Below are positions 1 through 5,064 of a stretch of DNA of 5,064 nucleotides, piece by piece (within the stretch, counting starts at the first letter, position 1; every line of letters starts with the position of its first letter). A program made the translations under genes and the position numbers. The stretch covers positions 1 to 5,064 of IMG/VR virus record IMGVR_UViG_3300022693_003385. One strand, given 5' to 3'. The notes beneath the pieces are model-generated. The model ran no database searches and was not told the DNA's origin. It worked only from the letters and a program-made list of their open reading frames with translations. This DNA comes from a virus.

Positions 1-144
1 CGGGATTAGGAGATTCCGAGCCAATTAATCCGATCCAAATGGCTTTCGCGCAATTGATCGGAAATATGGCTCAACAAAAACAAGTTATTATTCCTCCTAA
101 AATAATTGAAAGAGACCAAAAAGGATTATTTGTTTCAAAAGACG
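1..144. repeat. Terminal direct repeat, copy 1, identical to 4921..5064. This is the overlap signature of a circular or concatemeric 4,920-bp unit.
   Basis: I compared all 144 bases with 4921..5064 by eye and found no mismatch. The repeat is flush with both window ends and lies inside an ORF. Confidence 0.95.
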
Positions 145-149
145 AATAA
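1..149 (+). CDS. 3' end of the wrap-around ORF that starts at 4767. It is a duplicate of 4921..5064 plus the last 5 nt, gaa TAA.
   Basis: The frame continues from 4767. Codons run gga(3-5)...gac(141-143) gaa(144-146) TAA(147-149), giving ...GLGDSEPINPIQMAFAQLIGNMAQQKQVIIPPKIIERDQKGLFVSKDE*. Confidence 0.7.
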   Translation, partial: GLGDSEPINPIQMAFAQLIGNMAQQKQVIIPPKIIERDQKGLFVSKDE

Positions 150-203
150 CGGAATTTTTAGATCTTAAAAACTTCGAATTCCGGAAAAAATAAAGCTCAA
201 AAA

Positions 204-251
204 TTGCTGTTTTACGGTAAAATTTGTAAAACAATAATAAACAACTATACA
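204..251 (+). promoter_or_regulatory. Weak candidate sigma70-like promoter region for the plus-strand structural operon.
   Basis: Hand-picked hexamers are TTGTAA(224-229)-16 nt-TATACA(246-251) or TTTACG(211-216)-18 nt-TAATAA(235-240). This is the only sizeable AT-rich gap before gene 265. Gene 265 has no SD, so a very short leader is possible. Confidence 0.25.
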
Positions 252-264
252 ACCAGATGTTAGT

Positions 265-690
265 ATGGCACGTAGAAGAAAGAAAGCCTCAAGACGAAGA
301 AGCCGATCGGTTTCACTAATTAATTTAGCAGAAAGTTATGCTTATGCAGATACATTAACCTCTGGAGTTATGGGAACTACTCCATTAGGATTTATTACAG
401 GCGCGTCTGATATTGGAATGAAACGAATGCCTGATTCTGTAGGCGGTTATAACACATCTAGTATGGTAATGACAGGTACAGATCAAATATCCTTAGCAGA
501 TATTACTACGAATCCGGGTGCATCGTTTAATGCTATGCAGGCAAATCTGTCCAGCAATTATATGAGCATGTTTTACAAAGCCGCAGCCATAAATGTAAGT
601 TTTAAATTAGGTAAAAGATTACTTCGTAGACCTATTTCAAACGTAAATAGAAATATCTTTCGGCCCTTGGGAGCGGGTTTTAAATTATAA
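265..690 (+). CDS. Hypothetical protein with an arginine-rich N-terminus, possibly a nucleic-acid-binding or internal virion protein.
   Basis: 141-aa ORF with an ATG start. The first 15 residues, MARRRKKASRRRSRS, include 9 basic ones, and the C-terminus (KLGKRLLRRPISNVNRNIFRP) is also basic. It sits directly ahead of the tightly spaced operon. Confidence 0.7.
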   Translation: MARRRKKASRRRSRSVSLINLAESYAYADTLTSGVMGTTPLGFITGASDIGMKRMPDSVGGYNTSSMVMTGTDQISLADITTNPGASFNAMQANLSSNYMSMFYKAAAINVSFKLGKRLLRRPISNVNRNIFRPLGAGFKL

Positions 691-693
691 ATT

Positions 694-699
694 GGTGAT
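694..699 (+). promoter_or_regulatory. Shine-Dalgarno site GGTGAT for the gene at 704.
   Basis: GGTGAT lies 4 nt before the ATG and is complementary to the GAUCACC part of the 16S rRNA 3' tail. Confidence 0.7.
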
Positions 700-703
700 T
701 TGA

Positions 704-1390
704 ATGACTACACAAAATGTATCAGGAGTCCTAAACTGCACTAGCGGTTTTAAAATTCCATTAAACGCAACAATCACTGACGGTACAGAAGCAAGTCTAA
801 CTACAGATACTGCTTTCACTGTAACGGCTCAAAATATTGGCGACTTTGCTAATGGTCAAACTGTAACTTCTGGATTAGTTACTGCAGGAGCAAACATATC
901 ATACGCATACATACTAAGGAAAGGATTGATCCTTTCTTTAATACCATTTGCAGTTAAGGGAGTTGCATGTGGAACTCCTTCTCTTGCTCGCCCTGTGACT
1001 TTAATGGCTGGAGATCAACTCCGAGTTTTCACTATGGTTGCTGCTGGCAGAAATGCGTCTCTAGCGGTAGTGACTAACCAAGGTGTTCCTCGTATCTTCA
1101 TCGGTGCAAGTGTAGCGGCAGGTGCGGGAACTTTCCAACTTGTAGACCTCCAGACTTCGAATTCCATAGGAGAAACTCTCCAGGGCCAAGTTGTTCAGAT
1201 GGCACAATTTACTTCAGTAGATCAAGCATTAATTACAAGCGTGGCAGGTGGCGCACAAGTAACTATGAGTAATGGAAATTTGAGCGGAAGTATTCCTGCA
1301 ACTGATCCAATTGAAACACAACCTTACATGAAGCCTTGCTCAATTCCAGTTCAATTAAATTTCACAGCACAATACATAACTTCTGCTTAA
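704..1390 (+). CDS. Hypothetical structural protein, the candidate major capsid protein. No family is assigned.
   Basis: 228-aa ORF with a strong SD. It is rich in T/V/A/G/S, has few charged residues, and has no His or Trp. It has a beta-strand-like alternating pattern and sits between the Arg-rich protein and the fibre gene. Confidence 0.85.
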   Translation: MTTQNVSGVLNCTSGFKIPLNATITDGTEASLTTDTAFTVTAQNIGDFANGQTVTSGLVTAGANISYAYILRKGLILSLIPFAVKGVACGTPSLARPVTLMAGDQLRVFTMVAAGRNASLAVVTNQGVPRIFIGASVAAGAGTFQLVDLQTSNSIGETLQGQVVQMAQFTSVDQALITSVAGGAQVTMSNGNLSGSIPATDPIETQPYMKPCSIPVQLNFTAQYITSA

Positions 1391-1397
1391 GGTGATC
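1391..1397 (+). promoter_or_regulatory. Shine-Dalgarno site GGTGATC for the small gene at 1401.
   Basis: The sequence reads TAAGGTGATCtaaATG. The 7-nt complement to the 16S tail ends 3 nt before the ATG, with the core GGTGAT 4 nt before it. Confidence 0.65.
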
Positions 1398-1400
1398 TAA

Positions 1401-1562
1401 ATGGCTAAGATTACAAAGGCACAACAAAAAAGATTGATTAAGTCTATTGATTCAAAAGCAGTCAAATTGGCCTTTAATACTTTTAACCCTAGGATTTTAA
1501 CTCCACAAGATTACATGGCGATCGAGAAGATTCTGGCAAGAGCGATGAACCGAATAAAGTGA
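1401..1562 (+). CDS. Small basic hypothetical protein of 53 aa, absent from the supplied ORF track.
   Basis: Hand translation gives MAKITKAQQKRLIKSIDSKAVKLAFNTFNPRILTPQDYMAIEKILARAMNRIK*. It has a perfect SD and exactly fills the gap between 1390 and 1569 in the operon. Confidence 0.6.
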   Translation: MAKITKAQQKRLIKSIDSKAVKLAFNTFNPRILTPQDYMAIEKILARAMNRIK

Positions 1563-1563
1563 T
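1559..1563 (+). promoter_or_regulatory. Partial Shine-Dalgarno site (a)GTGAT for the gene at 1569.
   Basis: GTGAT lies 5 nt before the ATG, with the same motif register as the neighbouring genes. Confidence 0.4.
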
Positions 1564-1568
1564 ATGAA

Positions 1569-1787
1569 ATGCCCCTCCCTAATGCTGAAAGACGTAGCAA
1601 TAGAATTTACCCTATCATTAAGGGCAAGACGCTTGAAGAGATTGCTTCTGGTGAGAATCCTACAATTGATAATATCGGCAAACCGATCGATATAATGCTA
1701 TTGAATGAAGATGAACTAAGAAGATTAGTATTAATTAAACTCGCAATTACTGCCTGCAAGGCCGATTGGGATGGATTTTTGAGTTAG
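1569..1787 (+). CDS. Stand-alone paralogue of the N-terminal (putative virion-anchor) domain of the downstream fibre protein.
   Basis: The 72-aa ORF aligns by hand with residues 1-69 of the 460-aa protein over shared blocks MPLP.A...S.RIY...K...LE, NEDE.RRLVL..LA..A...DW.GFL. About 29 positions are identical. The ORF ends exactly where the fibre's Gly linker begins. Confidence 0.75.
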   Translation: MPLPNAERRSNRIYPIIKGKTLEEIASGENPTIDNIGKPIDIMLLNEDELRRLVLIKLAITACKADWDGFLS

Positions 1788-1792
1788 GAGAT
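1786..1792 (+). promoter_or_regulatory. Shine-Dalgarno site AGGAGAT for the fibre gene at 1798.
   Basis: AGGAGAT ends 5 nt before the ATG. Confidence 0.65.
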
Positions 1793-1797
1793 GAAAT

Positions 1798-3180
1798 ATG
1801 CCACTACCAGACGCACCAGATTACTCAAAAAGAATCTATGAACTATTGAAAGAGACCGATCTGGAGAACTTATCGTATAGTCAATTCAAGGGAGTTGCAG
1901 AAAAAATCTTTATTGAGCCTGAAAATGAAGACGAAATGCGTCGTTTAGTATTAGTTCAACTTGCTAGAATGGCCGTACGTGGTGACTGGAACGGATTTTT
2001 AACGGGTGGAGGAGGATCAGGAGCGCCAACTGACGCAGAATATGTAGTAATGGCACTCAATGGTACTCTAACTAACGAAAGAAAACTTACAGCAGGGGCT
2101 AACATAACTATTACAGATGGCGGAGCAGGTGGTAATGTAACCATTGCAGCATCTGGAGGTGCTGTATCATTTCCTCTTGAAGGATCGTTAGGTTCTGTAT
2201 CTGCTCCTACTTATTCATTTACGGGTGATACTAATACTGGAATGTATTCTCCTGCAGCCGATCAACTCGGTTTTACTGTTGGAGGTAATGAAAGACTAGG
2301 TGTAGCAAACAACAAAGTCACTGGAATTGCATTTCAAACATCAGGAACCAATACAGCAGCGGCTCCCGACTTTTCTTTTACTGCTGATGCAGATACTGGA
2401 ATCTTCAAAGCGGCCGCAAATCAAATAGGATTTTCTGCGGGTGGATCAGAGAAATTTAGAATGGCAGACGCAGGACAATTAGGAATTGGTGGGGCAAATT
2501 ATGGAACTGCAGGACAAGTATTGACATCTGCAGGAGCAACAAGTCCTCCTACCTGGTCCACTGCTGCAGGAGGAGGTAACGAATTTAACGCGGAATTAGT
2601 TGGTGTAGAATTAGACCAATCAGGTACTGGATATGCTGCGTTTGATATTTTGAGTTTACCACCATACGGCGCTAGTCGTTACAATACTGGATCAATAGAT
2701 ACTAAACAATATTTTTACCCTTTTATTGCTCCAGCATCTGGAGATATTTCAGAAATAATAATGAATTTTACTTCTGCATCATCTGGAGCGACTAATGTCT
2801 ACTATGGATTCTATAGAGATAATAACGGAGTGCCTTCAACTCTTTTGGGTTATGCTACTGCAGACGGAACTTCAACAGGTGAACAAAGTATTACTTCGTT
2901 TAGTTCTACAGTTACTCTGACTAGAGGAACTCAATTCTGGTTATCTCAAAATAAATCGACTACAGATTCTATTACTCAAAGAGCAATCGATAACATTTAC
3001 AGAGCAAGGATCGCGCCTTACGAATCATTCCCATCAACTACTAACGGTTACGGAACTTCATTGACTACTAATTCAAGTGTTTCTGCTGTTCCAAGTGATA
3101 TTACTGCAGAAGATTTAGAACCCGGCATATTTTTCTCAGGTTTAGGTGCTTGTCCTCATATTAGTATTAAAATTCTCTAG
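1798..3180 (+). CDS. Tail-fibre/spike-like host-recognition protein.
   Basis: 460-aa ORF with a modular layout:
- N-terminal helical domain, aa 1-68;
- TGGGGSG linker;
- the segment DAEYVVMALNGTLTNERKLTAGANITITDGGAGGNVTIAA;
- two copies of a roughly 35-aa repeat, AP.(Y/F)SFT.D.(N/D)TG(M/I)(Y/F)..AA.Q(L/I)GF..GG.E;
- a GQVLTSAGATSPPTW motif;
- a roughly 200-aa C-terminal domain rich in S/T/N.
From memory these motifs are typical of phage fibre proteins. I have not confirmed this by search. Confidence 0.9.
   Translation: MPLPDAPDYSKRIYELLKETDLENLSYSQFKGVAEKIFIEPENEDEMRRLVLVQLARMAVRGDWNGFLTGGGGSGAPTDAEYVVMALNGTLTNERKLTAGANITITDGGAGGNVTIAASGGAVSFPLEGSLGSVSAPTYSFTGDTNTGMYSPAADQLGFTVGGNERLGVANNKVTGIAFQTSGTNTAAAPDFSFTADADTGIFKAAANQIGFSAGGSEKFRMADAGQLGIGGANYGTAGQVLTSAGATSPPTWSTAAGGGNEFNAELVGVELDQSGTGYAAFDILSLPPYGASRYNTGSIDTKQYFYPFIAPASGDISEIIMNFTSASSGATNVYYGFYRDNNGVPSTLLGYATADGTSTGEQSITSFSSTVTLTRGTQFWLSQNKSTTDSITQRAIDNIYRARIAPYESFPSTTNGYGTSLTTNSSVSAVPSDITAEDLEPGIFFSGLGACPHISIKIL
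2200..2304 (+). repeat. Intragenic fibre repeat, unit 1 (aa 135-169).
   Basis: SAPTYSFTGDTNTGMYSPAADQLGFTVGGNERLGV aligns with unit 2 at about 16 of 35 identical positions. The units are offset by 53 aa. Confidence 0.7.
2359..2463 (+). repeat. Intragenic fibre repeat, unit 2 (aa 188-222).
   Basis: AAPDFSFTADADTGIFKAAANQIGFSAGGSEKFRM. See unit 1. Confidence 0.7.
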
Positions 3181-3185
3181 GTGAT
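3180..3185 (+). promoter_or_regulatory. Shine-Dalgarno site GGTGAT for the gene at 3189.
   Basis: The sequence reads taGGTGATtcaATG, with 3-nt spacing. The first G is the last base of the fibre stop codon. Confidence 0.7.
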
Positions 3186-3188
3186 TCA

Positions 3189-3635
3189 ATGCCTAAGCCA
3201 AAACCAGACCAAGTCGTTCGTCATGAAATAGTTCTAGGCCGATCTGAACGAGAATTAATTTCTGATGGCATTGCAGCATACCAATTTAACAGAATTACCA
3301 CTCCTTTAGTTGCATTATTTTCTGATGCTTCAGCAATGGGCTTGATTCTTGGTGGTTTGGCTACTTATTATGGATTCAAATTTGACATAATACCGGGAGC
3401 ATATAATACTGGATTGGAATTGTATAATGACTGGAAGATTCAATATGATGCATGGAGAGAAACTGCCGGAGATTTTGCAAACGATCCTATTGGAGAAATC
3501 TTAGGAATTTTAATTCCCAATATTAACTTTAATCCGGGTGGAAGAATAGACCCTGTAACTGGAATGCCTGTTCAATATCCATACGGGCCCACAACTCCTC
3601 CAAGTTATACACCCGGCACACCTAGACCCTATTGA
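3189..3635 (+). CDS. Hypothetical membrane protein with a Pro/Tyr-rich C-terminal tail.
   Basis: 148-aa ORF with a strong SD. It has one hydrophobic span, about aa 36-63 (ITTPLVALFSDASAMGLILGGLATYYGF). The C-terminus is PVQYPYGPTTPPSYTPGTPRPY. It is the last gene of the plus-strand operon. Confidence 0.8.
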   Translation: MPKPKPDQVVRHEIVLGRSERELISDGIAAYQFNRITTPLVALFSDASAMGLILGGLATYYGFKFDIIPGAYNTGLELYNDWKIQYDAWRETAGDFANDPIGEILGILIPNINFNPGGRIDPVTGMPVQYPYGPTTPPSYTPGTPRPY

Positions 3636-3644
3636 GAGTGTAAA

Positions 3645-3688
3645 GTCAATAGCGATAATTCTTCGCCATCATAGGCGAAAATATTGAC
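3645..3688. terminator. Nested inverted repeat in the convergent intergenic gap, a candidate bidirectional terminator.
   Basis: The outer arms are GTCAATA(3645-3651) and TATTGAC(3682-3688). The inner hairpin is TTCGCC(3662-3667), loop ATCATA, GGCGAA(3674-3679). It lies between the stop codons at 3635 (+) and 3703 (-). The flanking U-tracts are poor. Confidence 0.45.
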
Positions 3689-3702
3689 CTCTCGACCCCC
3701 TA

Positions 3703-4026
3703 TTAAGGCAATTTTTTCCAGAACTTAAACCTATTATCTTTGAGTGCTTTGCTCTCAGCGTTCAATTGATCTATTTGTTGATTTAACTGCCCGATCACTT
3801 CTAGCATCTTTTTTCTTTCAAAGGGTGCAATAACTACACCATGTGATGATTGAATTAGTTTACCAGTGAAACCTTCTTCATCATATTCTTTTGCCCATTT
3901 AGGTTCAGTGTAGAACCAGATGATCGCTTTAGATACATTATCTGACATTTCTCCAGCCTTCGATCTGGTTCTAATTAATTCAGATGCTTGTTTATAGAGA
4001 GTAAATGAATGTAGAATTTTACTCAT
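3703..4026 (-). CDS. Hypothetical protein of 107 aa with a coiled-coil-like C-terminal half. It is the last gene of the minus-strand cassette.
   Basis: ATG start at 4026 with the SD GGAGAT (4033-4038 on the minus strand) 6 nt upstream. The start directly abuts the stop of the upstream gene (TAG-ATG). The segment MLEVIGQLNQQIDQLNAESKALK looks heptad-like. Confidence 0.75.
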   Translation of the reverse strand: MSKILHSFTLYKQASELIRTRSKAGEMSDNVSKAIIWFYTEPKWAKEYDEEGFTGKLIQSSHGVVIAPFERKKMLEVIGQLNQQIDQLNAESKALKDNRFKFWKKLP

Positions 4027-4269
4027 CTAACAATCTCCACTTAATAGAATTTCAAAGTGCTCCATAGTTTTCTTGATCATATTTACTTTATCAAATAATG
4101 ATTCTAAAATTCTAATCTGAGTTTCATCATAACATCCTCTATGATAAATATTAGGATCGCATTCTTCATTGCATTGACATCCTTTTTCGATTTCATCCCA
4201 TTCATGATCTTTGGCTAATAATAACGCTCCACAAATGACATCCCATTCTTTCGCTCTTAATCCAATCAT
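4027..4269 (-). CDS. Small Cys/His-rich hypothetical protein of 80 aa, possibly metal-binding.
   Basis: It contains GCQCNEECDPNIYHRGC plus Cys13 and Cys80. A GAGG SD sits inside the upstream gene, and there is a 4-nt ATGA overlap with the upstream gene at 4266-4269. Confidence 0.75.
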   Translation of the reverse strand: MIGLRAKEWDVICGALLLAKDHEWDEIEKGCQCNEECDPNIYHRGCYDETQIRILESLFDKVNMIKKTMEHFEILLSGDC

Positions 4270-4454
4270 TCTTCCTCATCCCTAAATCGGCCTTGTTTAG
4301 CCAAACATACAACCATTTCAACAAATGAATGTGAACCAACTAACTCTCCACAGGTTAAACACGGATCATTAGCATCAAATCCTTGTTCTTCAAGACACAT
4401 AGCACACCCGTAGTACCCACAATTAGGACAAACAACAGTTCTTGCATCCATCAT
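4266..4454 (-). CDS. Small zinc-ribbon-like protein of 62 aa.
   Basis: It has three CxxC pairs, at C9-C12, C17-C20 and C32-C35 (CPNCGYYGCAMC...CLTC). A GAGG SD lies 7 nt upstream. Its start overlaps the stop of the 39-codon ORF (TAATG). Confidence 0.75.
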   Translation of the reverse strand: MMDARTVVCPNCGYYGCAMCLEEQGFDANDPCLTCGELVGSHSFVEMVVCLAKQGRFRDEEE

Positions 4455-4573
4455 TACCAGTCCTCACTGATCGTGTCCTTACATCGTTCACAAATTCCCC
4501 ATGTATGTCTCTTTTCGTCTTGATAGCATTTCCTTATTCTGCAAAGGCAGCATTTGTCGTCGTATTCACCCAT
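4454..4573 (-). CDS. Mini zinc-ribbon-like protein of 39 aa, absent from the ORF track. It is the first gene of the minus-strand cassette.
   Basis: Hand translation of the reverse complement gives MGEYDDKCCLCRIRKCYQDEKRHTWGICERCKDTISEDW*. It has two CxxC pairs, at C8-C11 and C28-C31. A GAGG SD (4580-4583) lies 6 nt before the ATG. Its stop TAA shares one base with the next ATG. Confidence 0.55.
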   Translation of the reverse strand: MGEYDDKCCLCRIRKCYQDEKRHTWGICERCKDTISEDW

Positions 4574-4601
4574 ATTATGCCTCACGACCTAAAATCAATA
4601 T

Positions 4602-4629
4602 ATAATATCACCGGCAGAATGCCGATCAA
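4602..4629 (-). promoter_or_regulatory. Candidate promoter of the minus-strand cassette.
   Basis: On the minus strand it reads TTGATC(4629-4624), a 16-nt spacer, then an extended -10, TGaTATTAT (4610-4602). It is about 30 nt upstream of the ATG at 4573. The same ATATTATATAT stretch could also be read as an archaeal TATA box. Confidence 0.45.
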
Positions 4630-4673
4630 ATCTTTTGATTCGATTAAAATCGTTTTACGCGATTGCATATCGC
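4612..4673. repeat. Cluster of four contiguous short inverted repeats, candidate operator or origin structures.
   Basis: The four repeats are:
- CGGCA-gaa-TGCCG (4612-4624);
- ATCAAA-tct-TTTGAT (4625-4639);
- CGATT-aa-AATCG (4641-4652);
- GCGAT-tgcat-ATCGC (4659-4673).
The region is also dense in GATT/AATC tetramers. Confidence 0.5.
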
Positions 4674-4716
4674 CTGAAAGGTATCCTTTCGACTCATGAT
4701 TAAGATAAAAAGATTA

Positions 4717-4735
4717 GGGTGGGGTTCGGGGAGGG
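4717..4735 (+). other. G-quadruplex-capable motif GGGTGGGGTTCGGGGAGGG.
   Basis: There are four runs of at least 3 G separated by loops of 1, 3 and 1 nt. It sits on the plus strand of an AT-rich intergenic region, 32 nt upstream of the ATG at 4767. Confidence 0.6.
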
Positions 4736-4766
4736 TATTAAGAACCGATCGGGCTACGATGGGGAT

Positions 4767-5064
4767 ATGATGGAGAGCCTCTATATTATAGGAGTCATAA
4801 TCTTAGGTTTTGGGGTTATGGCTAAACTTTTACATGATCTTGCAAACCAAATAGACGAAGGATTAATAGAATTGGACGAAAAATTAGCATTAGCGATACA
4901 ATCAGTAGTTGAAAAAATACCGGGATTAGGAGATTCCGAGCCAATTAATCCGATCCAAATGGCTTTCGCGCAATTGATCGGAAATATGGCTCAACAAAAA
5001 CAAGTTATTATTCCTCCTAAAATAATTGAAAGAGACCAAAAAGGATTATTTGTTTCAAAAGACG
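4767..5064 (+). CDS. Small protein with an N-terminal membrane anchor. It is 100 aa in the circularised unit; the ORF runs off the window end and finishes at 147-149.
   Basis: Hand translation gives MMESLYIIGVIILGFGVMAKLLHDLANQIDEGLIELDEKLALAIQSVVEKIPGLGDSEPINPIQMAFAQLIGNMAQQKQVIIPPKIIERDQKGLFVSKD(E*). Residues about 5-22 are hydrophobic. The start is ATG 4767 or ATG 4770, the latter with GGGGAT 3 nt upstream. It is absent from the ORF track because it is truncated by the window edge. Confidence 0.7.
   Translation, partial: MMESLYIIGVIILGFGVMAKLLHDLANQIDEGLIELDEKLALAIQSVVEKIPGLGDSEPINPIQMAFAQLIGNMAQQKQVIIPPKIIERDQKGLFVSKD
4921..5064. repeat. Terminal direct repeat, copy 2, identical to 1..144.
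   Basis: Same exact 144-nt match. The window stops exactly where the identity would otherwise continue. Confidence 0.95.

Follow-up and report, generated by a model that had tools for sequence, protein, structure and literature searches.

According to the main text of the preprint in which they were described, Charybdis elements are circular, exclusively marine, probably double-stranded DNA elements of about 4.6 kb, and they are defined by Gp3, a double Greek-key protein of about 230 amino acids (aa); their genes form a "structural module" and, on the opposite strand, an "accessory module" rich in methyltransferases, a replication gene is undetectable in the family, and marine group II archaea (Poseidoniales) have been put forward as putative hosts on the basis of integrated elements of clade P (Kirchberger & Luque, bioRxiv 10.1101/2025.08.03.668216). 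In this work, we analyzed the IMG/VR virus record IMGVR_UViG_3300022693_003385 (positions 1 to 5,064; this whole stretch of 5,064 nucleotides, nt, is hereafter called the window) and, in particular, a cassette of four very small minus-strand genes at positions 3703-4573, here called p39, p62, p80, and p107. We identify this cassette as a Charybdis accessory module, because the 228-aa protein of the window matches proteins of relatives that include a contig cited by name in the preprint. The comparison with these relatives shows the module to be, in its gene content, a mosaic in which an invariant distal gene, p107, lies behind hypervariable mini-genes, most of which are rich in cysteine.

Two groups of described proteins are close to the products of this module in size and presumed function. 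Small CPxCG zinc-finger proteins account for approximately 8% of the small archaeal proteins and for 1.5% of those of bacteria, and among them Brz is a regulator of transcription (PMC2253796); in Haloferax, 12 of the 16 deletion mutants of zinc-finger mini-proteins exhibit phenotypes (PMC6562870). In addition, most of the characterised transcription regulators of archaeal viruses have ribbon-helix-helix (RHH) or Zn-finger motifs (PMC5569661). Since such regulators prevail in archaeal viruses and CPxCG proteins are several-fold commoner in archaea, a regulatory role for the products of the cassette appears plausible.

The window contains a complete element. Its first and last 144 nt are exactly the same (positions 1-144 and 4921-5064), and the removal of this terminal redundancy leaves a circle of 4,920 bp. 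The 228-aa protein (704-1390) shares 75-94% identity with proteins on 44 IMG/VR contigs of 4.2-5.9 kb, 30 of which carry terminal repeats; among them is IMGVR_UViG_3300017782_005554 (L017; L numbers are our labels for single genomes and contigs), which the preprint names as an example of a type II protrusion. With its 228 aa, the protein has the size of the Gp3 hallmark (about 230 aa, with at least 30% identity within the family), and it shares 31% identity with a 230-aa protein encoded by MH617945 (L047, "Circular genetic element sp."), a more distant relative of a record type that is also mentioned in the preprint; the double Greek-key fold that it should adopt is taken from the family definition of the preprint, not from a prediction on the window. 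The plus-strand genes extend from 4767 across the circle junction to 3635 and the minus-strand genes occupy 3703-4573, which corresponds to the size and layout of Charybdis elements (circles of roughly 3.7-5.2 kb whose genes form two clusters on opposite strands). The sole matches of the ten window proteins in the Pfam and PHROG scans were tail-fibre-like repeats in the 460-aa protein, and neither database revealed among them a hallmark gene of viruses, plasmids, or transposons or a replication gene. No DNA-level or protein-level match to the window was found in 50,697 phage records (blastn, tblastn), and Rfam returned nothing at E<=1. The original prediction, which was made from the letters of the window, had regarded the cassette as the only non-structural module of a replicon whose Rep cannot be recognised, and the main text of the preprint comes to the same conclusion for the family.

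As in the other Charybdis accessory modules, the variable genes of the window stand opposite to a structural operon on a circle of about 4.6-4.9 kb that carries the Gp3 hallmark and in which a replication gene was not found; unlike them, the module of the window is devoid of methyltransferases and consists solely of mini-proteins and p107. The family and the concept of the accessory module are already described in the 2025 preprint, and the window is a further, methyltransferase-free member. The main text of the preprint does not use the terms zinc, cysteine, regulat-, promoter, or leaderless, and does not single out an invariant distal gene. With respect to that text, the possibly new features are the dominance of Cys-rich mini-genes, an invariant p107 conserved beyond Gp3, a fixed TATA-like box in front of a first gene lacking a Shine-Dalgarno (SD) sequence, SD sequences placed in tail codons, and compensated palindromes.

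Direct reading of the minus strand shows that four open reading frames (ORFs) of 39, 62, 80, and 107 aa tile positions 3703-4573 without gaps. The p39/p62 junction (GGTAATGATG) is TAATG, with a 1-nt overlap; the p62/p80 junction (GAAGAATGATT) is ATGA, with a 4-nt overlap; at the p80/p107 junction (GTTAGATG), TAG is followed by ATG with 0 nt in between. The features of the cassette are the following:

4580-4583, minus strand: SD-like GAGG, 6 nt upstream of the p39 ATG
4454-4573, minus strand: p39, first gene of the operon, 39 aa, candidate Cys4 zinc ribbon (C8xxC11 ... C28xxC31)
4461-4465, minus strand: GAGGA, SD of p62, 6 nt before its start and within the last codons of p39 (…SEDW*)
4266-4454, minus strand: p62, 62 aa, C9xxC12, C17xxC20, and C32xxC35 plus C50 and H42, net charge -7
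4392-4451, minus strand: in-frame segment of 20 codons of p62 (codons 2-21) with a CPNCG-x4-CxxC knuckle, missing from the homologue on contig L045 in the window-L045 DNA alignment
4273-4277, minus strand: GAGGA, SD of p80, 3 nt before its start and within the tail codons of p62 (…RDEEE*)
4027-4269, minus strand: p80, 80 aa, predicted acidic helical hairpin with a four-Cys loop (AlphaFold2, AF2, model with a mean predicted local distance difference test score, pLDDT, of 80.5; helices 6-29 and 49-77)
4126-4182, minus strand: Cys loop of p80 (residues 30-48, C31xC33x3C37x8C46), the block with the lowest pLDDT (69)
4035-4038, minus strand: GGAG, SD of p107, 8 nt before its start and within the tail codons of p80 (…SGDC*)
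3703-4026, minus strand: p107, last gene of the operon and its core, basic and Cys-free, predicted helix-helix-hairpin followed by a long C-terminal helix with the tail NRFKFWKK

Head-to-tail ORFs of at least 35 aa cover 100% of these 871 nt, whereas none of 2,000 mononucleotide shuffles reached 100% (maximum 69%, mean 10%); the four head-to-tail ORFs and the three junctions recognised in the original prediction are therefore confirmed by direct reading and by the shuffle test. An SD sequence had also been assigned to each gene: GAGG, GAGGA, or GGAG does precede all four, but the GAGG of p39 is peculiar to the window, in that only 3 of 44 genomes, the window included, carry GGAG or GAGG before the first accessory gene and the other 41 have no SD there.

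The ratios of non-synonymous to synonymous differences (pN/pS), computed with the Nei-Gojobori method (NG86), were pooled among relatives for p39 and p80, for which the median ratio of the corresponding substitution rates (dN/dS) was also obtained. They are 0.30 for p39 (median dN/dS 0.19), 0.30 for p80 (median dN/dS 0.11; pN/pS 0.24 between the window and L045), and 0.20 for p107 (window versus L045). For p62, the 41 codons common to the window and L045 give 0.37 in frame and 0.75 and 2.6 in the other frames, so that the 39- and 62-codon frames both exhibit the coding signature of a ratio below 1. Since pN/pS lies between 0.2 and 0.37 and the coding frame scores below the other frames, these substitution patterns show the four ORFs to be real genes under purifying selection. 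It might be argued that the ORF of p62, and possibly that of p80, is in decay or due to chance and is kept open only by the compactness of the operon. Indeed, p62 is nearly an orphan: we found no relative of it in IMG/VR, in the JGI metagenome contigs, or in the GTDB genomes, and its single relative in a search of 5.8 billion proteins is a truncated 42-aa ORF on L045, a 747-bp ENA contig with the same gene order as the window (p39-p62-p80-p107). We consider this interpretation extremely unlikely, given the in-frame ratios of p62 and p80 reported above, the retention in L045 of the Cys/His ligands C32, C35, H42, and C50 of p62 (the N-terminal knuckle pair being absent there), the integrity of the start/stop overlaps and of the embedded SD sequences, and the confident AF2 model of p80.

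The junctions of the window (-1, -4, and 0 nt, each with an SD inside the upstream gene) have the architecture of translational coupling, the coupling itself being predicted. The same architecture recurs in the clade, where 127 of the 144 accessory-module junctions measure -8, -4, -1, or 0 nt (73 ATGA overlaps and 43 1-nt overlaps), and where the 101 unique tight junctions reveal a GAGG peak at -11 to -8 (G 72%, A 56%, G 71%, G 74%), the most frequent spacer being 7 nt long. Translation of the embedded SD motifs as Glu/Gly codons gives 36 of the 127 upstream proteins an acidic tail, for example …EEE.

To compare gene contents, the window and its 44 circularised relatives (45 genomes) were considered together, and the minus-strand ORFs of 20 aa or more located between p107 and gp1 were all listed and clustered; the presence of single genes in the relatives was scored by tblastn against the circularised genomes. 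The proteins of the structural module are present in 42-44 of the 44 relatives and p107 in all of them. The region from the promoter to p107 is hypervariable: it holds 30 families of small ORFs, 16 of which average at least four Cys, and 97 of the 130 small ORFs have at least four. Cysteine makes up 9.6% of the residues of the small accessory ORFs, 2.3% of those of the methyltransferase-sized ORFs, and 0.45% of those of the structural proteins of the window. The swarm of Cys-rich mini-genes is therefore a property of the clade rather than a peculiarity of the window. Among the four proteins of the cassette and the other accessory families, only methyltransferases exceeded the cut-offs in the Pfam, PHROGs, and NCBIfam searches; in Pfam, this holds for Dam-type (PF05869) and C5 (PF00145) enzymes, accompanied by two N6-like methyltransferases with weaker matches. 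In six genomes, a Dam-like methyltransferase occupies the last slot before p107.

The original prediction, which focused on the Cys-rich genes, did not recognise the cysteine-free p107 as the conserved gene. Its product is basic (isoelectric point 9.5) and shares 46% identity with its counterpart in the distant MH617945 element (E 3e-33; L047:752-1135), whereas the identity is 31% in Gp3, 39% in the 141-aa protein, and 40% in gp1; on the basis of these alignments, it is the best-conserved protein between the two elements. The set of 5.8 billion proteins contains 42 p107 clusters, and a profile search of 1.84 billion representatives returned 28 at E<=1e-3, all of about 60-180 aa except for one repetitive protein of 2,241 aa. 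The pattern HxFxL...KS..VS.AI.W is invariant throughout the family. Within the tail NRFKFWKK, the N, R, K, F, W, and last K do not vary, and at least 90% of 30 sequences retain F100 and K104; a basic-aromatic C-terminal tail is also present in many distant members, and may represent an amphipathic segment binding membranes or nucleic acids.

In the AF2 model of p107 (mean pLDDT 71), residues 1-11 are disordered, and two helices (12-21 and 27-40), a hairpin (44-59), and a long last helix (68-104) follow. This modelled layout would fit either an RHH protein, whose N-terminal strand is ordered only in the dimer, or a winged helix without helix 1, neither of which is confirmed. The RHH layout, that is, an N-terminal strand and then two helices, may match the p107 pattern: the invariant pattern fits the layout, but the first 11 residues are unstructured in the AF2 monomer and the Gly of the G-x-S/T/N turn is not invariant. 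Among described proteins, p107 can be compared with the RHH regulators SvtR, AvtR, F55, and E73 and the Zn-finger regulator AFV1p06 of archaeal viruses (PMC5569661), which are small DNA-binding proteins of compact genomes wholly reliant on the host RNA polymerase; it differs from them in the absence of detectable sequence or fold similarity and in having, in addition, the hairpin, the long coiled-coil helix, and the basic-aromatic tail. That p107 binds DNA has, in our judgement, roughly even chances.

The accessory operon is separated from gp1, the first gene of the structural operon, by a divergent region with the following features:

4574-4766, no strand assigned: divergent control region between the accessory operon and gp1, with conserved blocks and three palindromes
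4599-4607, minus strand: TATTATATA, candidate for the TATA box of the operon (first T 34 nt upstream of the p39 ATG)
4612-4624, no strand assigned: GC-rich palindrome (CGGCA-GAA-TGCCG) that precedes the TATA-like box by 4 nt

The box TATTATATA is invariant, and located at exactly 34 nt from the ATG of the first gene, in 41 of 44 genomes. On the other side, T[TA]TTAAG (4736-4742 in the window, plus strand) is found 31 nt upstream of the gp1 ATG in 42 of the 45 genomes. In the classic archaeal arrangement, a TATA box is centred some 27-30 nt ahead of the start codon, the first gene lacks an SD, and the internal genes have one. The signals of the control region would fit divergent archaeal-type TATA promoters with leaderless first genes, in agreement with the host proposed in the preprint. 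Two other readings of this stretch were discarded: the small ORF at 4582-4668 on the minus strand ('MQSRK...') is not a gene, as it lies upstream of the conserved TATA-like box and undergoes indels in relatives that are not multiples of three, and the GTG at 4585 is ruled out as the p39 start by the conserved start column, which is the ATG at 4573.

A direct palindrome search placed three palindromes (4612-4624, 4659-4673, and 4676-4690) between the two TATA-like boxes, with both arms co-varying in relatives. The first of them is preserved through changes in both arms (GCGGCA/TGCCGC, CGCCG/CGGCG, AGGGCA/TGCCCT), and further two-arm changes are GAAAGG/CCTTTC versus GCTAAG/CTTAGC and GGAAGG/CCTTCC. 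They are candidates for an operator or an origin. It is possible to imagine, in the latter case, that p107 is, instead of or besides a transcriptional regulator, an origin-binding, replication-initiation, or genome-maintenance protein that acts on the palindrome-rich region and recruits host enzymes, or tethers the DNA for packaging. The idea is in agreement with the conservation of p107, which is unique among the genes outside the structural operon and the highest overall, with its basic character and its nearly invariant basic-aromatic tail, with the three compensated palindromes of the non-coding region adjoining the accessory operon, and with the existence of contigs that are tandem concatemers. 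On the other hand, nuclease, HUH, primase, and ATPase motifs were not found in its 107 aa, nor did any initiator match it, and the concatemers may come from multiple displacement amplification, which was used for the Mediterranean data set of the preprint. We therefore consider this role unlikely on balance and prefer that of a regulator of the two promoters, although, if any gene of the module serves replication or maintenance, it would be p107.

Concerning the first gene of the operon, homologues of p39 occur in 35 of the 44 relatives, nearly always as the first gene. Its product has Cys at positions 8, 9, 11, 16, 28, and 31; across 37 sequences, all of them except the variable C16 are invariant. 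In eight of the nine genomes lacking p39 (L005, L014, L015, L016, L026, L030, L034, and L035), the first accessory slot is occupied by a DNA methyltransferase of the C5, DPPF, or NPPF type; from this absence and replacement it follows that p39 is, at the level of gene content, dispensable and replaceable. Searches with p39 in Pfam, PHROG, and PDB-sequence profiles returned no match. Its assignment to the DksA/TraR C4 zinc fingers was rejected (NCBIfam DksA_like, E=0.06, 13.6 bits versus a cut-off of 105; no Pfam match).

The CPxCG-related zinc-finger proteins (Tarasov et al. 2008) are defined as proteins shorter than 100 aa in which two pairs of Cys/His, with a spacing of 2-3 residues inside a pair and of 7-40 residues between the pairs, include one or more of the forms CPxCG, CPxCx, and CxxCG. 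Among the products of the cassette, p62 alone falls within this definition, with C9PNC12G and C32LTC35G. p39, with two CxxC pairs 16 residues apart, neither of which is CPxCG-like, and p80 fall outside it. Like the CPxCG-related proteins, which are enriched in archaea and include the gene regulator Brz, p62 has the motif and belongs to a class of products of fewer than 100 aa with little beyond paired Cys/His knuckles; the differences are that sequence homology is absent and that a mobile element encodes the window proteins, as part of an array that is shuffled. A free-standing 20-aa ORF of L024 (MPLCPNCGDWPDGCFCEGEE) resembles codons 2-21 of p62, the segment missing from L045; because of this resemblance, the comparison suggests that p62 is a fusion of two mini-cassettes across the GAAGAA that is common to an "…EE*" tail and a "MEEQ…" start. 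A RING or treble-clef finger was tried for p62 and rejected (zf-RING_5, E=0.061, 13.7 bits versus a cut-off of 27.9).

The situation of p80 is different from what had been proposed for it. Homologues were found in 6 of the 44 relatives, on L045, and in eight database clusters; the IMG/VR scans with p80 and p62 yielded no additional contigs. C31, C33, C37, and C46 are kept in seven close homologues and in six full-length database clusters, and the protein also has C13, C80, and three His. The Cys pattern described in the original prediction is thus present, but the His of the loop, H43, is not conserved among homologues. Moreover, the homologue of L032 (70 aa, module positions 342-554, minus strand; 33% identity over 84 aligned residues) has no Cys at all, lacking the whole loop and keeping both helices, so that the loop would be dispensable for the fold. 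Foldseek searches of the AF2 model against the PDB returned generic helical hairpins at E>1 only. According to the model, p80 is not a zinc-finger fold but a two-helix hairpin with Cys in the connecting loop, whose tip possibly binds a metal or forms a disulfide. Of the three zinc-finger-like proteins originally proposed, p39 and p62 do have the paired CxxC knuckles (two and three pairs, respectively, as claimed), and the Cys of p39 and the ligands of p62 proved to be conserved in homologues as detailed above, whereas p80 leaves the group.

A further family of 40 aa (MNLRCCKCQLVFLVNTFEDVRIIQAMSCPEGAGHKLSEVV; MNLRCCKCQ…, with CxxC...C-x4-H) is present in 36 of the 44 relatives and absent from the window; in L001, for instance, it lies at positions 338-460 of the minus-strand module. 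Its pN/pS of 0.08 indicates a very strong constraint. Across the 45 genomes, the 40-aa family occurs in 36 and p80 in 7, 2 have neither and none has both, so that the two never co-occur.

On the basis of their Cys spacing, p39 and p62 look like genuine Cys4 zinc knuckles, with zinc as the likely ligand. A different possibility is that the Cys-rich products are mini-proteins stabilised by disulfides, Fe-binding (rubredoxin-like) proteins, or virion components. The CxxC...CxxC signature also defines rubredoxins, the identity of a metal is unreadable from sequence, and a contamination of about 15% by iron-sulfur (Fe-S) proteins was reported for the CPxCG set (PMC2253796). However, the Cys-rich products lack signal peptides and membrane segments, their genes belong to a non-structural operon beside methyltransferases, and no Pfam match to rubredoxins or ferredoxins was obtained even at E<=1, all of which renders this alternative quite unlikely compared with zinc knuckles.

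It had also been suggested that the Cys-rich proteins recruit the host replication machinery, standing in for the absent Rep. Zinc ribbons are common in replication and transcription factors, and a replication gene is unrecognisable both in the window and, according to the main text of the preprint, in the Charybdis family. The distribution of the genes argues against this idea, since relatives do without them: p62 is lacking in all 44, p80 in 38, and p39 in nine, with a methyltransferase in its slot in eight of these. An essential role in replication is incompatible with genes that close relatives lack, unless many non-homologous mini-proteins share one job. From this patchy distribution, the Cys-rich genes cannot be the universal replication factors of the family. 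In addition, p62 and p80 are strongly acidic, and for this reason direct DNA binding by either of them is disfavoured. We regard replication recruitment as very unlikely; the other part of the same suggestion, i.e., that these proteins act as regulators or host-takeover factors, fits an accessory module that carries methyltransferases elsewhere in the clade.

Taken together, these data lead us to propose that the cassette is an accessory module organised as a coupled host-interaction operon that ends in a DNA-binding regulator, an explanation that, as a whole, we consider probable, if by no means assured. A single polycistronic mRNA would begin at the p39 ATG or a few nt from it, with TATTATATA acting as an archaeal-type TATA promoter and the first gene being leaderless, and p62, p80, and p107 would be translated by coupled re-initiation at the embedded SD sequences. 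p39 (CxxC-x16-CxxC) and p62 (CPxCG-type, with two knuckle pairs) would fold around zinc, and p80 would form an acidic helical hairpin whose Cys4 loop perhaps binds a metal and whose fold is independent of the loop. The three proteins might be host-interaction factors that can replace one another, acting as small regulators or else inhibiting host defence or other host proteins, outside the essential machinery. The basic p107, with an RHH-like or winged-helix-like N-terminal half and a long coiled-coil helix, would be the conserved DNA-binding component, and most likely auto-regulates the divergent promoters through the conserved control region.

Phage anti-CRISPR (acr-aca) loci have an organization of this kind, with fast-turnover small genes behind a strong promoter, followed by a conserved gene for a small DNA-binding protein. 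The likeness of the window operon to them is one of architecture and an analogy only, to which the anti-restriction methyltransferases of the Charybdis locus might be added; the difference is that the window proteins are not known to be homologous to any Acr or Aca protein.

Several points weigh against our proposal. The roles of p39, p62, p80, and p107 are all predicted; none of the four proteins matches a Pfam, PHROG, NCBIfam, PDB-sequence, or Foldseek family, and zinc binding is read from Cys spacing alone. The exchange of p39 for a methyltransferase may reflect only a tight limit on genome size and not a common function. The RHH reading of p107 failed every similarity test applied to it: no RHH or helix-turn-helix (HTH) Pfam family was detected in 49 members, scanned in sets of 30 and 19; PDB sequences searched with the full-length protein and its N-terminal 43 aa, as with p39, gave noise only (hyaluronate lyase, antibody light chains, mitochondrial ribosomal protein); and hhalign of the N-terminus against a small hand-typed Arc/Mnt/CopG alignment gave a probability of 3%. 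Foldseek searches of the p107 model against the PDB and BFVD returned nothing at E<=0.001 apart from one family member, and the sole hints of a fold were insignificant matches to winged-helix proteins (MarR-, DnaD-, and WH1-like). Furthermore, the conserved box may be read as the extended -10 element of a sigma-70 promoter (TTGATC, 16 nt, TG-n-TATTAT, with a leader of about 20 nt); the -35 part of such a promoter is not conserved, and promoter-like sites are no commoner than in shuffles. Lastly, the archaeal host is no more than putative for the clade to which the window belongs, the integration evidence in the main text of the preprint being limited to clade P, and scanning of the GTDB genomes revealed no relatives of p39 or p107.

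Some observations concern the rest of the element and its relatives. A gp1-like gene of 100 aa (MMESLYIIGVIILGFGV...), with an N-terminal hydrophobic segment, extends from 4767 to 149 across the circle junction. The 141-aa protein (265-690) has an arginine-rich start, MARRRKKASRRRSRS, like the nucleic-acid-binding N-termini of capsid or internal proteins of small viruses. The 72-aa protein (1569-1787) is a free-standing paralogue of the first ~69 residues (1798-2004) of the 460-aa protrusion protein (43% identity, E 9e-19), and presumably corresponds to the N-terminal knob (anchor) domain of the preprint. Between the stop codons of the structural operon (3633-3635) and of p107 (3703-3705), a hairpin, TTCGCC-ATCATA-GGCGAA, is found at 3662-3679, with no T-run after it; lying between convergent operon ends, it may be a bidirectional terminator. 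Finally, L046 (ENA ERZ26869290 ctg347519, 16,940 nt) and L049 (11,758 nt) are tandem concatemers of Charybdis genomes; that of L046 has a period of 4,504 nt and about 3.7 copies, which differ from one another by frameshift-type changes. Both could be replication intermediates or amplification products.

A bolder scenario is that the operon constitutes the whole non-structural apparatus of a Rep-less replicon, in which p107 would be a new, minimal origin-binding protein acting on 4574-4766 and recruiting the archaeal replisome, and p39, p62, the 40-aa family or p80, and further interchangeable zinc mini-proteins would serve as adaptors or inhibitors directed at proteins of host replication, transcription, or defence. 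We give it an outside chance; if it were true, these mini-proteins would be a large and unexploited reservoir of factors for taking over archaeal hosts and countering their defence.

Charybdis elements abound in the oceans and perhaps form a virus lineage not yet described; no means of replication or regulation is known for them. The window by itself is one more instance of an architecture already described. Compared with its relatives, it reveals that the "accessory module" is not uniformly accessory, since it ends in a gene conserved better than Gp3, beside a palindrome-rich control region. The Cys-rich mini-genes, mostly under the thresholds of gene callers, form a pool of candidates for interaction with hosts among the uncultured marine group II archaea, and p107, together with the control region, represents a concrete first target for understanding how Charybdis elements are controlled or copied.

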